In this document: positions 8,370 through 62,457 of the stretch, piece after piece
How the letters are laid out: every line of letters starts with the position of its first letter
Position numbering within the stretch: position 1 is the first letter of the stretch
Source: Eledone cirrhosa
Lineage: Eukaryota
DNA: 64,000 bases
Assembly (NCBI GenBank): GCA_964016885.1
Contig: OZ024750.1
Coordinates: 21,452,001 to 21,516,000 of the forward strand
Reading direction: 5' to 3'
Notes under the pieces: generated by a model
Database searches by the model: none
What the model saw: the letters and a program-made list of their open reading frames with translations, nothing else
What the model was told of the DNA's origin: nothing
Program-made: the position numbers and the translations under genes

Positions 8370-8555
8370 TAGGAACACGTTTAACCCCGATGGCAGAGCT
8401 CAAGCCGTTTCCTATTGCCCACTCTACTACCCTAGGTATTGAGTACTCTGGTGCGTTATGGTCCATCTGGTTCCTTACCACACTTCCTTCGTTATATATA
8501 GTAACAGTAATAAATGTGAAGACTAACATCCGAAGAGAGCTCGATAAGGATAATA
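8370..8555. mobile_element. Short PLE-derived element, family 1 (inverted HHR 3' half plus tail)
   Basis: 8370-8411 is the reverse complement of GAAACGGCTTGAGCTC..GGGGT..TTCCT; 8411-8500 matches the tail at 40695-40780. Confidence 0.8.
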
Positions 8556-8596
8556 TACATATATAAAAATATATAAAAAGCGTACAGCAAATATTT

Positions 8597-8647
8597 AGTT
8601 TCAGAAGATCCCGTTGAGGGCAAAAGCAGCGATTCTTTGCTTAAACT
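8597..8647 (+). ncRNA. Hammerhead-like motif with CAGAAGA core (GAAA mutated to AAAA in this copy)
   Basis: AGTTT-CAGAAGA-TCCC GTTGA GGGC-AAAA-GCA..TGC-TT-AAACT: stems I, II and III pair; homolog at 40126-40176. Confidence 0.55.
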
Positions 8648-8775
8648 TACTTTAATCTGTTATTTTAATATATATACATATATATATAATATATACATAT
8701 ATATATATATATATATATATATATATATATATATATATATATATATATATATATATATATATATATATATATATA

Positions 8776-9420
8776 TAGACACTACGGCTTAATACGGGAT
8801 GTTTGTTTACAAACACACCGAGCATTATAATAAATGTTCGGTGAATCCATACGTGCATATATATATGTGTCCATGTATGTATATATATACATACTACTGT
8901 ACGTCGGTATACATATGTGTATGTACGTGTACATACTTATATTTAAGTAACAGCCGTACTAAGAGTGGGAAATGAAATATCGTTTCATTTTTTTCCGTTT
9001 ATCGTTTTCGGTGCACCCGGCCGATTAACCCACTCGATATGCAAATTGGGCTACTCAGCCGTTAATATGCATAAGGTAAGTATATACGTTCAACAATCTG
9101 GCAGGAAGGTATACGTTGCTGACGATAGCTAACAAGCTTGAAACTAGTACAGCGTTCCTTTGTCAGTGTTGAACAAACGAGCAACGGTGGTTGCTAGACA
9201 CTACGGCTTAATATGGGATGTTTGTTTACAAACACACCGAGCATTATAATAAATGTTCGGTGAATCCATACGTGCATATATATATGTGTCCATGTATGTA
9301 TATATATACATACTACTGTACGTCGGTATACATATGTGTATGTACGTGTGCATACTTATATTTAAGTAACAGCCGTACTAAGAGTGGGAAATGAAATATC
9401 GTTTCATTTTTTCCGTTTAT
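8776..9420 (+). mobile_element. Non-coding retrozyme-like element: about 1.5 tandem copies of a ~419-bp unit containing one HHR (family 5)
   Basis: 8776-9002 is repeated almost identically at 9195-9420; HHR at 9113-9155; no meaningful ORF; both ends abut (TA)n. Confidence 0.8.
9113..9155 (+). ncRNA. Minimal type I hammerhead ribozyme, predicted cleavage after GUA at 9149
   Basis: ACGTTG-CTGACGA-T AGCT AACA AGCT T-GAAA-CTAG-TA-CAGCGT; palindromic ACTAGT at stem III; stem I extends via GTTCAACA..CTGGCA / TGTCAG.TGTTGAAC. Confidence 0.85.
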
Positions 9421-9544
9421 ATATATATATATATATAATATATATATATAATATATATATATGTGTGTATATAGTGAATGGTCGTGGCTTAGTGGTTAGA
9501 GAATTGGATTCGTAATCGTGAGGTTGTGAGGTAGATTCTGGTGT

Positions 9545-9680
9545 AGGACAGAACAAAGGAGAGATACAAAATAAATGCTCAGTCACTGATATGGTCACAG
9601 AATGTGTGACGAAAGAACTGTGAAAACCAACAGGTGTGTGTGATTTTATTGGCAGCATGACCCTCCCAAAGAATAACAAT
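9545..9680 (+). mobile_element. Short PLE-derived element, family 4, with degenerate HHR (9581-9622)
   Basis: AGTCA-CTGATAT-G GTCACA GAATG TGTGAC-GAAA-GAAC; ends in ATGACCCTCCCAAAGAATAACAA then (TA)n, like 19830-19855 and 38340-38362. Confidence 0.7.
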
Positions 9681-58968: not shown

Positions 58969-60417
58969 TATATACGGTTGCTGTCTACGTCTGTCCCTCA
59001 CTAGGGATTATTTACCTGATTTCTCTAAGCTAATATTTATATATATATATATATATATATATATATATATATATATATATATATATATATATATATATAT
59101 ATATCGGGAACATGGGAGAAATACCGTCGAAACGGCGTGGGGTAAAATATTACCTCGAAGGACAGAGATCAGCGGCTAGATGTGAGTTGGTTCGAAGGAA
59201 TGAAGAGAAGATAGGAAGGTGGAAATATATATATTTATATCAATTAAAATATTATTCGTCTCTTAGACATCTCAATGAATGGATGAAATATATAAATAAA
59301 ATAATAAAATATCGAGTCGATTATATGAGTTAGACTAACAGTCTGACTTATACTCACCTAAATTGATATTTTGGCATATATTTAATATGTTATATATATA
59401 TATTTATGTATGTATGTGTGTGTGTTCGTGTATATATATATATGTGTGTATGTGTGTGTGTTCGTGTGTGTATATATATATATATATATTATCTAATAAT
59501 GTACTAGTCTACTTTCAATTTTAATTATCCTTTCTTCAATAATACAAAAATTATTTATTGATTTTTAATCATTTTTAATGGATGTCAATATACTACCGCT
59601 AAACAATTATTATATATAATTTAAAAATTACTGTACAGGATATAATTATTATTATACGGAACTTCATATTATTAAAATAAAAGTGTTCGGAAAATAATAT
59701 CTAAAGGAGGTTTTTTTAAATGAAATTATAGAAATCTTTATATTTATGTTATATTTTAGAAATATATCGAGCATAATTTCAATCTATAATAAGCAGAATT
59801 TAATTATATGTCGCTGTTGGGAATCAGAATGTAGCTTATCCAAGCTAACAGAACCTTGATCAAAGGATATTTCATGCATGACCATCTAGTATTTTCTTCT
59901 TATCCGACATGTGTATTTTGGATCTCACGAACAAATATATCGCTGGAAAACATGAGATGTTTTGTTCGTTCATGAAAATAAATGAGGGTCCACGTTTAAG
60001 GAGTAACTGGTTGAACTCCTTAATTTACCTGACATGTTTTTAGGCTTCCATAATTGTAAAGTTTTCCCTTCAATATTTAAACATTATTATTTACATTTTC
60101 ACTTTCATTTTCTCCCAACGCGCTTTTAAAACAGGTAAGGTAAATTATTTATATATGGTTCATCTGATGAGTTATCCTTGCAGGACTATTCATTCCTGTT
60201 AGTCTAGCGAAATGTTCGTAAATATATTAAATGCTTTAATAGTAATCCTTGTTTAAACTTCCGTTTATACATACACACACATGCACACACATGCACACAC
60301 ACACACACACACACACACATTATATATATATATATATATATATATATATATATATATATATATATATATATAGAGAGAGAGAGAGAGAGAGAGAGAGAGA
60401 GAGAGAGAGAGAGAGAG

Positions 60418-60695
60418 AAAGATGAAATCGAAAATGCAACTGGAGTCATATTTTTAAAAATATATATATATTTATTTGGTTCCTTTATAGGTTTCACAGT
60501 TCTTCTGCTTTTCAAAAGTACAGTTGAGATGGAGGGTCTGCGGTTTTTCTCACAGATGTGAGAAAAACCACAGACCCTCCATCTCAACTGTACTTTTGAA
60601 AAGCAGAAGAACTGCGAAACCGGTAAAGGAACCAAATATATATATATATATATTTTTTTAAATAAGACTCCAGTTGCATTTTCGATTTCATCTTT
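60418..60695. repeat. ~280-bp foldback palindrome centred at 60555-60556 (family 3), each arm carrying an HHR
   Basis: Arms are reverse complementary with few mismatches; 2-nt centre. Confidence 0.9.
60593..60628 (+). ncRNA. Minimal type I hammerhead ribozyme with U3:A8 core, predicted cleavage after GUA at 60625
   Basis: CTT-TTGAAAA-GCAG AAGAA CTGC-GAAA-CCGG-TA-AAG; palindromic ACCGGT; mutated mirror copy at 60483-60518(-). Confidence 0.7.
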
Positions 60696-61589
60696 TTTTT
60701 CTTTATACTTTCACTCGTGTAGGACACCTCGGTTATTTTTCATTTTGTAAAAAAGACCTCACTTTCTAATATATATATATATATATATATAAGATCAAAA
60801 TACTTGAGTGTGTTAGAGTTAAACACACTCGTCATATATATATATATATATATATATATAATAGTAATGAGTATAATCGAAGTTGCATCTGCAAGTAGCA
60901 GATTCATATCCGATTGAATTTGAAAGACCGTCACAAAGCACTCAATTATAAAGTAATCAAAGACATTTCTCCTCAGAGGGAACACAAGAAGTTAAGTAAT
61001 GGTGACACAATGAATAATGCGACACGGGGAATTTTGGTACATTAATATATATATATAATAGGGTGTATTGTGATATTCATTTGTATTAGTGAATATTCAT
61101 GTCGATGATTTGGTATTAGGTACTTCACAAAACACTATTTCAGATGACATAATTATCAGAAATAGTTTCAAGTAAATAGTCAATATTATCAATAAATGTT
61201 ACGTTGACTTACAATCTGCATATGAGACTTTAATTCCATACAAGAGTAGTGCATTTATATTATAACATATATATATAGCTCTTTGTGTGTATGTGTGCAC
61301 GTGTATGCATATATGTATATATATATATATATATATATATATATATATATATATATATATATATATATATATATATATATGAAGTATTGGCTTTTATTTA
61401 ATGTGTTGATGACACATCAATGATTTCTTCTTCCGCTCTTTTAGTTCCGAATGGAACAAATACAGACTTTGTAAGCTATGAACCTTTGAATACAATATGC
61501 TGGTGAAGAGAAAAATAAGTTCTCACTCAAAACCCTCAGAAACATCATCATTAGAAACAGATTTCCTTCACACAACCCCACAGCTTGAA

Positions 61590-61815
61590 TGTGTAGTTAA
61601 CAGAATAGAATATATTGATTATATTTTTAAATTTCTAGAAAATAACGTTGATATGAATCTTGAATGGAAACCACATATTGATCTGCACTTCAGGCTACTG
61701 CTCAGTACTATTGCTATCCTATCACGCAGGAAAAATTACTTTTCTTGACATATGCTACAAAACAGATCATACTTGTTTTAGCTGGCATATTAACTATAGC
61801 ATTATTTTGTGTAGT
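61590..61815 (+). mobile_element. Old Crack/L2-group LINE fragment
   Basis: IEYID..FKFLENNVDMNLEWKPHID....L.STIAILSR.KNY...HINYSII resembles FKFLG..ID..L.WK.HI..HLNYGI. Confidence 0.6.
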
Positions 61816-62221
61816 CATCATACTAGTGGTTAAATATATTTTGTTGAATAATTGTAAGTCTAGATTTCATTAAATTATTTAACTGTGATCATAAGGATTT
61901 TCTCTACAGTAACAATAGTGTTTTAAACTTTCAAACCAGTTTTATTTCTGTACTAATTAAATTATGTCATTTTCGCCTTGGTGACCTGTCTAAATTTCTG
62001 TAGAATGTTGTTTCGGCAAACATCACTTTCAGATCAAAACACTCATGTACACGTAATACAGACGATGTTCACAAGATTCTTGTATACAATCGCACATCAT
62101 TGAAAACATTATGCCGCATGAGATAAACTCTCCTACAATTGATGCCCCTAATATCAACAATAGGCATATCGACATGAAAACCCATATATATATATATATA
62201 TATATATATATATGTGTGTGT

Positions 62222-62457
62222 GTAGGAGGTGAGTTTTATTGTAGTACAATAAAGCAATGCAGATATCGGATAAGAAGCACTCTACAGACTGGAGTATACA
62301 TAATATATAAGATCAAAAGATGGTTAAAGGAGTTCCATGTATTTTATTATGCGCATATTATCTGATGAAAACACAAATATTATTGCATGATGATGTTTGT
62401 TTTTGAAATGCGCATAATAAAATACATGGAACTCCTTTAACCATCTTTTTTTTCTTA
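62222..62457. mobile_element. Family 7 short element with foldback
   Basis: 62315-62357 inverted versus 62408-62449; 62222-62325 is the reverse complement of the tail at 49348-49455. Confidence 0.88.
62358..62420 (+). ncRNA. Type I hammerhead ribozyme, predicted cleavage after AUA at 62416
   Basis: TTAT-CTGATGA-stem II (15 of 16 positions pair, GCAT loop)-GAAA-TGCGCA-TA-ATAA; palindromic ATGCGCAT. Confidence 0.8.

Follow-up and report, generated by a model that had tools for sequence, protein, structure and literature searches.

Head-to-head copies of Penelope-like elements in (TA)n-rich DNA of Eledone cirrhosa and their probable origin by priming from both target ends

The window analyzed here is a 64-kb stretch of the Eledone cirrhosa genome (GenBank assembly GCA_964016885.1, contig OZ024750.1, forward-strand positions 21,452,001 to 21,516,000; positions below are counted from its first letter). 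Its AT content is 69%, and short repeat islands sit between 361 pure (TA)n runs of at least 12 bp. Five repeat families (1, 2, 4, 5, and 7), two of which carry Penelope-like element (PLE) genes, are represented by 22 copies. Half of these copies consist of two oppositely oriented pieces whose 3' ends face outward, and their outer ends recur at fixed sites, many of which match the TA flank over several nucleotides. Probably, reverse transcription is primed by the two strands of a cut TA target through short UA pairing, at starts set by the ribonucleoprotein (RNP), and end-joining links the two resulting complementary DNAs (cDNAs).

Family 1 is identified from its sequence as a Hydra-clade PLE. 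Its longest body in the window (14364-16843, minus strand; open reading frame (ORF) 16843-15588) contains reverse transcriptase (RT) motifs, a frameshift, a CxCx5C linker, a GIY-YIG endonuclease (EN), and a 1.2-kb 3' untranslated region (UTR), and stops at an internal site termed E1 (GGTTCC/TAT, the slash marking the end). Full homologs, aligned by tblastn, span 16843-15606 in order with one frameshift and place the EN C-terminal to the RT, and the homolog P0055 matches the Pfam GIY-YIG family; no Pfam match was obtained for eight window peptides. The window ORF has the linker CNCPDRSIC, a single Cys between VIY and YIG, CNLC, and CKH, and lacks CCHH. The window copy has no N-terminus; RWK and DKT are present in an alignment of 21 homologs and in 17 and 51, respectively, of 85 matches, many of them partial. 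The terminal-repeat ends of family 1 are bordered by TA arrays. A degenerate hammerhead core is visible by eye near 8590 and 40160, neither of which passed the motif descriptor. No hammerhead appeared among the 150 of 267 Rfam scan matches listed; these all scored below the gathering threshold and consisted of microRNA (miRNA) matches driven by microsatellites and two chance similarities to viral UTRs.

Family 4 is, by its EN, a Neptune/Nematis-type PLE. Its ORF (18636-19270, plus strand) encodes a C-terminal EN with a CTNRKCIIC linker and two Cys inside the GIY-YIG domain (VVY..C....C..YIG); its homologs carry RT upstream of the EN, and the best named homolog is an Octopus vulgaris RT protein (59%). 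Families 2, 5, and 7 carry type I hammerheads with exact cores (four matches versus one in 20 shuffled windows), located at 23038-23086 (plus) in family 2, 9113-9155 (plus) in family 5, and 49212-49282 (minus) in family 7, with a second family 7 copy at 62358-62420 (plus). No PLE ORF linked to these three families was found in the window. Terminal inverted repeat (TIR) DNA transposons, a possibility raised with the original prediction as its refutation, and miniature inverted-repeat transposable elements (MITEs) are ruled out by the copy-specific, variable interiors, the unlike left and right ends, and the RT/GIY-YIG ORFs.

The census of the five families yielded 11 two-piece copies, 10 single pieces, and one direct tandem; the single pieces include one copy with an adjoining, unassigned second segment (40179-40226) and four diverged relatives of family 4 matched on short ends. 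The sense strand was set by ORFs in families 1 and 4 and by the exact-core hammerheads in families 2, 5, and 7. On this basis, all ten copies previously listed as two opposed pieces (starting at 8372, 13221, 17789, 18431, 22981, 38031, 40619, 42235, 49177, and 62222) have that structure, with 3' ends outward and an inner junction that varies between copies, as predicted. By contrast, the accompanying claim that every copy is inverted fails at 11 of 22: inversion is common and family-specific, yet affects about 50% of copies and is not the norm. None of nine control repeats is inverted (0/7 resembling short interspersed elements, 0/2 of family 6), and six islands resembling long interspersed elements (LINEs) or other repeats show no self-inversion, in a test blind to non-overlapping inversions.

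The eleventh two-piece copy (14364-16925), absent from the earlier list, is inverted inside the ORF. Upstream of the family 1 body lies a piece of its own ORF in opposite orientation (16852-16925, plus strand; ITDQERKIILHARKTVLLFDDS), which aligns 0-20 amino acids upstream of FDVxMG in 63 of 68 homologs. The two pieces meet within 7 nt after 2.5 kb, with a 7-nt overlap, in the manner of an L1-type 5' inversion, and the native join across 16843, with the same 7-nt overlap, was recovered in a contig of sequencing run X1. The outer end of this inversion adjoins the end of an (AAT)n-rich repeat, not a TA array.

Three further family 1 copies are head-to-head: 8372-8667 (8372-8411 minus, ending at E1, and 8409-8667 plus, ending at E3; offset -4, junction match TTC), 40619-40776 (40619-40645 minus, E1, and 40644-40776 plus, E2; arms 27/27, offset -53), and 42235-42334 (42235-42290 minus, E2, and 42292-42334 plus, E1; 26-nt gap). 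Family 2 contributes 13221-13402 (13221-13272 minus, 13281-13402 plus) and the near-palindrome 22981-23163 (22981-23038 minus, Ea; 23038-23163 plus, Eb; arms 53/54). In family 4, the PLE at 18431-19856 has a plus-strand ORF, an inverted terminal repeat with a 47-nt tail (18431-18622, minus), and a templated 23-nt junction duplication; at 38031-38408 the minus piece (38031-38123) has no tail and the plus piece (38133-38408) has one. Family 5 is head-to-head at 17789-18045 (17789-17835 minus, 17826-18045 plus), with a 10-nt gap relative to the reference and an imperfect TAGTAC microhomology. Family 7 is represented by 49177-49455 (49177-49341 minus, Ea; 49350-49455 plus, Eb; 8-nt templated junction duplication) and 62222-62456 (62222-62356 minus, Eb; 62358-62456 plus, Ea; arms 42/42).

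The outer ends were compared with their flanks at distinct sites where a read-through copy gives the native continuation and the flank is TA. At seven of eight such sites the continuation matches TA over at least 3 nt (range 3-8), as against 7-14% of random positions (binomial probability about 7e-6 at 0.14). E1 of family 1, a bare TAT, was used four times with a 3-nt match, and E2, itself a short (TA)n, three times with an 8-nt match, one of these ends (22847) being a possible read-through. Family 4 Ea was used five times (matches of 4, 4, 4, 3, and 1 nt), family 5 Ea twice (3 nt), and family 7 Ea twice (7 and 4 nt); the match is 4 nt at family 5 Eb and 5 nt at family 2 Ea. The predicted recurrence of outer ends at TAT/TATA is thus borne out. 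Among two-piece copies with a TA flank, the upstream end matches TA over at least 3 nt in 9 of 10. Five 5' ends beside arrays match TA over only 0-2 nt as registered, and one of them (14331) lies inside a TA patch. Family 1 has 14 UA patches in its last 330 nt and 41 in its UTR, only a few of which are used, so something else must select the site. Ten window copies have both of their ends in the terminal repeat, and none of them uses one site twice, in agreement with the published tail on one end only.

The geometry of the pieces is likewise informative. Measured from the 3' end of the upstream piece to the 5' start of the downstream piece, the 11 offsets are +26, +10, -4, -7, -16, -42, -48, -53, -55, -148, and -294 nt; five lie within -16 to +26 nt and nine within about 55 nt of abutting, the exceptions being -148 and -294. 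Eight of the 11 copies have staggered pieces and so cannot have come from fold-back of the nascent cDNA, and nine of 11 carry duplications, which a simple later inversion cannot make. The two arms of a copy agree at 27/27, 53/54, 145/148, 65/65, and 42/42 positions, versus 41/49, 105/112, and 88/93 to other copies; this greater likeness fits a single template and would fit gene conversion as well. At the inner junctions, microhomology of 2-3 nt occurs at 8372 and 40619 and an imperfect match of about 8 nt at 17789, templated duplications occur at 18431 and 49177, a 1-nt match at 22981, a single extra base at 42235, 38031, and 62222, and filler at 13221. To judge from these sequences, the junctions look like mixed end-joining, not obligatory microhomology, and the proposal that cDNAs join by microhomology as a rule applies to only about half of them.

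A candidate RNA module may mark one of the start sites. In six families, a TA patch lies 7-17 nt before a predicted bulged hairpin, RCUC...GAGYRCY, at the upstream end site. It is present at 40697-40731 (plus; TAT at 40697, hairpin ACUC...GAGUACU at 40705-40731), 8413-8447, 13334-13356, and 23092-23130, and in imperfect form at 49363-49401 in family 7, which MAFFT did not register in the alignment. Families 2 and 7 have the GAGYRCY module in common with Hydra loci; families 4 and 5 lack it. The upstream end site precedes GAGYRCY by 28, 32, 32, and 30 nt in family 1, family 2, family 7, and the loci L008/L017 of other animals, and, of 21 ends examined, 8 have GAGYRCY 31-59 nt upstream (within 80 nt; background 2-3%). 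In 29 of 140 occurrences, as against 3% in shuffles, the motif completes a small hairpin with a bulge (RCUC/GAGY; in locus L009 GCAC/GUGC), and TAT or ATA stands just 5' of it in 22 of the 29 hairpin matches versus 35 of 110 non-hairpin matches; these counts include related copies. The mapped ends of loci L009 and L012 lie 7-8 nt before such a hairpin.

Sequencing reads and other animals provide independent views of this architecture. Four of 18 listed runs of other samples were mapped onto 14350-17235, which proved to belong to a high-copy family with E1 read through in all four; reads of the restriction-site-associated DNA (RAD) run begin at CATG sites and show that read-through is common, not what share of copies ends at E1. 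Fifteen joints were listed; a strand change occurs in nine of them, at scattered positions, including the native join that spans the window's own inversion. The two testable strand-change joints fit a head-to-head arrangement, one of them consisting of TA plus an E1-ended inverted piece, and no TA array stood at 3'-side loose ends inside the ORF or UTR among the matches listed. A search of genome contigs with a family 1 19-mer gave four bacterial chance matches, and no relative was found in viral contigs. Assembly fold-back is an unlikely source of the structures, since short reads of other samples and other species show the same architecture; the window loci themselves were not read-checked.

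Fourteen Hydra-type loci (L005-L018) were identified in contigs filed as bacterial metagenome-assembled genomes (MAGs), which most likely represent contaminating DNA of animal hosts. Seven are head-to-head (L005, L007, L008, and L014-L017), three are direct or tandem, and four are cut by contig ends. Both testable ends fall on UA patches (3 nt in L009, 4 nt in L012; background 4-8%). The inner junction of L005 shows a 5-nt match, and L007, which has no TA array, carries a possible 8-bp target duplication (7/8 match) that overlaps each arm by 3 nt. Between TA runs of locus L008 lie additional head-to-head palindromes that have hammerhead-like cores (6097-6313 and 6782-7131).

The remaining copies in the window are not inverted. 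Family 5 forms a direct partial tandem at 8778-9417 (plus; unit 419 bp). Single pieces of family 1 lie at 22847-22914 (minus; stopping at, or reading through, E2) and 40105-40178 (minus; ending near E3), those of family 2 at 1871-1946 and 2026-2048 (both minus) and 47047-47184 (minus), and those related to family 4 at 37704-37948 (minus), 9543-9678 (plus), 14264-14331 (minus), 23230-23258 (plus), and 44885-45125 (minus).

Several neighboring structures deserve mention in their own right. A large palindrome at 60418-60768 (arms 130/137, 2-nt center, degenerate hammerhead-like core, left arm ending in (TC)n), with a further copy at 63502-63566, is probably another PLE-type head-to-head copy. A candidate further one is 62511-63332, where a GIY-YIG fragment (62960-63240, minus) is preceded by an opposite-strand, family 7-like 83-nt piece with GAGYRCY (63250-63332). 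A hammerhead-like stretch (CTGATGA...GAAAC; 22745-22832, plus) that ends in TA and did not pass the descriptor stands tail-to-tail with the family 1 piece at 22847. Next to the inverted ORF piece lies a separate high-copy repeat ending in (AAT)n (16926-17235), other copies of which break at 17055, an AT patch beside (TA)n (14 contigs of X1, one of X6). The last ~16 nt of family 4 and the CTTACTTACTCC unit form tandem repeats interleaved with TA runs (19843-20107; 23274-23360 and 23687-23729), for which slippage or repeated priming is a candidate origin. Family 6 (31230-32198, 49539-50164), an unclassified repeat that is never inverted, has a sharp end (CCACCAT) and contains a 334-bp tandem duplication. 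LINE-like ORF fragments (10997-11649, 20645-21138, 32740-33010, and 34557-34787), which we take to be RTE- and CR1-like, are likewise bounded by TA arrays, and a perfect 17-bp tandem occupies 11464-11604.

Orientation, recurrent ends, TA matches at the ends, staggered geometry, and the patch-plus-hairpin module are seen directly in the DNA; the steps from nicking to joining would link them as follows. The GIY-YIG endonuclease would nick both strands of AT-rich or (TA)n DNA, and the protein would bind RNA of the terminal repeat, with the bulged RCUC/GAGY hairpin as its probable site, thereby offering two or three fixed starts, one on a UA patch 28-32 nt upstream of GAGYRCY and one 31-59 nt downstream of it. 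One DNA end would prime at the downstream site. The other would use the upstream site, located on the same RNA under twin priming and on a second repeat or RNA under dual priming, which is postulated for long overlapping copies. Each start would probably be aided by 3-8 nt of UA pairing, and end-joining of the two cDNAs would leave small gaps, duplications, microhomology, or templated inserts. Priming of both cut strands would likely produce the head-to-head inversion, and priming by only one end a single-piece copy. Both central ideas of the original prediction survive in part. Its use of both target ends as primers agrees with the staggered copies, the near-abutting offsets, the ORF inversion, and the alike arms, and its priming by UA pairing with the statistical TA match at outer ends, found also in Hydra elements of other animals. 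It needs correction on four points: inversion affects only about 50% of copies, most UA patches go unused, inner microhomology is patchy, and several distal ends lie off TA.

A number of observations weigh against priming of both strands through UA pairing. The left end of the 13221 copy and the end at 60418 have a TA match of 0, the distal end of family 2 (CCCGG) is sharp but lacks a direct TA flank in 5 of 5 copies, and the CCTAC end of family 7, predicted to be a TA site, is not a TA patch; moreover, a UA patch beside (TA)n is the break point of an unrelated repeat as well (17055). Half of the copies carry no inversion, and duplications outnumber gaps at the breakpoints by 9:2, the opposite of L1. 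Clear microhomology or a templated insert is present at only 5 of 11 inner junctions, and only 2 of 7 strand-change joints in raw reads share at least 2 nt. In L007, L008, and L014 the same site is used at both ends, which speaks against a single-RNA version and fits dual priming or a tandem RNA. With regard to the module, its motif was defined post hoc, after some of the same sequences were known, and its counts are inflated by related copies; some of the 29 hairpin matches lie away from element ends, whole-tail folding z-scores are unremarkable (-1.1 to +1.4; 0.58 for 40644-40776), and E1 of family 1 has a competing fold. Finally, the start sites of the Poseidon element studied in PMC11167929 are reported there as not homologous to the target.

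This last report counts in favor of an explanation in which the protein sets the starts without base pairing and the RT stutters on the UA patch, writing or extending (TA)n itself in a telomerase-like manner. Such stuttering would suit the majority of UA patches that go unused, the position of the patch beside a conserved hairpin, and ends followed by repeats of their own last bases (CCTAC/ACACAC at 62222). It is nevertheless judged quite unlikely: according to PMC8557442, (TA)n is the insertion target of Hydra and Naiad PLEs, and the possible 8-bp target duplication of L007, in a locus without a TA array, fits pairing with a pre-existing target. Self-priming, which starts from a folded-back cDNA or antisense RNA and ends with capture of the returning strand by the target at a UA patch (PMC3846280), would account for the near-perfect palindromic centers at 22981-23163 and 60418-60695, for identical arms, and for L007, whose arms are 100% alike over 758 bp. 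However, fold-back on nascent cDNA needs nested arms, and 8 of 11 copies are staggered, five overlapping by at most 16 nt or not at all, while the arms of L015, L016, and L017 carry different parts of the ORF; this origin is accordingly regarded as very doubtful for the set as a whole.

Later inversion or trimming of direct insertions, by recombination or slippage between self-complementary (TA)n arrays and internal TA patches, is considered just as doubtful. In its favor are the 361 arrays in the window, the short (TA)n that forms site E2, the UA patch at 17055 where an unrelated repeat ends, and a 5' end (14331) inside a TA patch. Against this, the inner junctions have no TA array, 9 of 11 copies carry duplications beyond a simple inversion, none of the nine control repeats is inverted, and young copies (99-100% alike; 14364 and 40619) are inverted already. 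The same few sites recur while longer patches remain unused, and L005, L007, and L016 are head-to-head without a TA array in the locus. Priming from both target ends is the reading preferred to these three.

A bolder extension of that reading can be put forward, although it is held to be unlikely. Telomerase employs an alignment region plus a boundary hairpin. Hydra-clade PLEs may have a comparable module, a UA patch of 3-8 nt located 5' of a conserved bulged hairpin, from which a dimeric RT-endonuclease would prime on both strands of a cut (TA)n at once and add TA by reiterative copying. If this were true, these PLEs would build the microsatellites that they later target and would be a main source of TA arrays in such genomes.

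With respect to known systems, the closest relatives of family 1 are the Hydra-clade C-terminal EN+ PLEs (Craig et al. 2021, PMC8557442), in which RT is followed by GIY-YIG, with CxCx5C, CxxC/CxH, no CCHH, and (TA)n flanks, and whose RW[KR] and DKT motifs are present in family 1 homologs. Almost all Hydra families are reported to insert into (TA)n, and the origin of PLE inverted and tandem structures, together with the microsatellite preference, is named there as an open question. Neither a map of end sites nor UA pairing nor a hairpin module is presented in the Hydra section of that paper; the hammerhead-like core seen in family 1 of the window is degenerate. Canonical head-to-head PLE pseudo-long terminal repeats (pLTRs; PMC3846280, PMC8557442) resemble the window copies in having an inverted, 5'-truncated copy, palindromic junctions, two end sites, and a tail on one arm (47 nt in family 4). 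Unlike these, many window copies have non-overlapping pieces, one of them inside the ORF, and the end pairs of Hydra-like families lie 68-93 nt apart; the published explanation of the canonical form is self-priming. Animal non-LTR (long terminal repeat) retrozymes, described as non-autonomous PLE sequences (bioRxiv 10.64898/2026.07.22.740005), are comparable to the 419-bp hammerhead direct tandem of family 5 and the short hammerhead units of families 2 and 7, but these three families, unlike retrozymes as described, also form head-to-head pairs, with no parent ORF seen in the window.

Biochemically, the best counterpart is the purified anole Poseidon element PAc, a predicted dimer that cuts both strands of AT-rich targets and extends them and whose two internal starts define the tail (PMC11167929). 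Its starts are non-homologous to the target, in contrast to the matches of 3-8 nt at seven of eight TA-flanked sites in the window, and second-strand steps are left unresolved by this system, the only one available in vitro for PLEs. Head-to-head pLTRs, junction palindromes, tails, and (TA)n bias are already published. In the titles, abstract openings, and passages covered by the literature search, which included few subscription papers, neither twin or dual priming of PLEs nor a UA-patch/hairpin module was found, and the TA matches at ends, the ORF-internal L1-type inversion, the staggered offsets, and the six-family hairpin module were not found in print. Start sites are mapped at this locus, its breakpoints resemble those of L1, and it holds a candidate cis-element common to several animal genomes, which makes the origin of PLE inversion directly testable through the 3-nt patch, the 2-nt bulge, and the target sequence; two-end priming, if true, would account for the long-unexplained head-to-head structure. 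For annotation the locus carries a warning as well: palindromic islands of this kind within TA arrays derive from retroelements and should not be taken for MITEs or miRNA hairpins.

Twin and dual priming of L1 (PMC2837659; bioRxiv 2024.08.27.596794) offer the nearest mechanistic parallel, with two inverted pieces, a short gap or duplication, about half of the copies affected, and weak inner microhomology. Inversion was reported for 1,703 of 3,598 tumor L1 insertions, with median internal deletions and duplications of 14.5 and 22 bp, which the offsets in the window resemble (bioRxiv 2024.08.27.596794), and microhomology at L1 inner junctions is similarly weak (PMC2837659). Unlike L1, the window copies have no poly(A) at any end, both primers act internally at recurrent fixed sites, duplications exceed deletions, and target-site duplications are mostly unreadable in the (TA)n flanks. 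The window copies work like twin priming and are not members of the L1 class.

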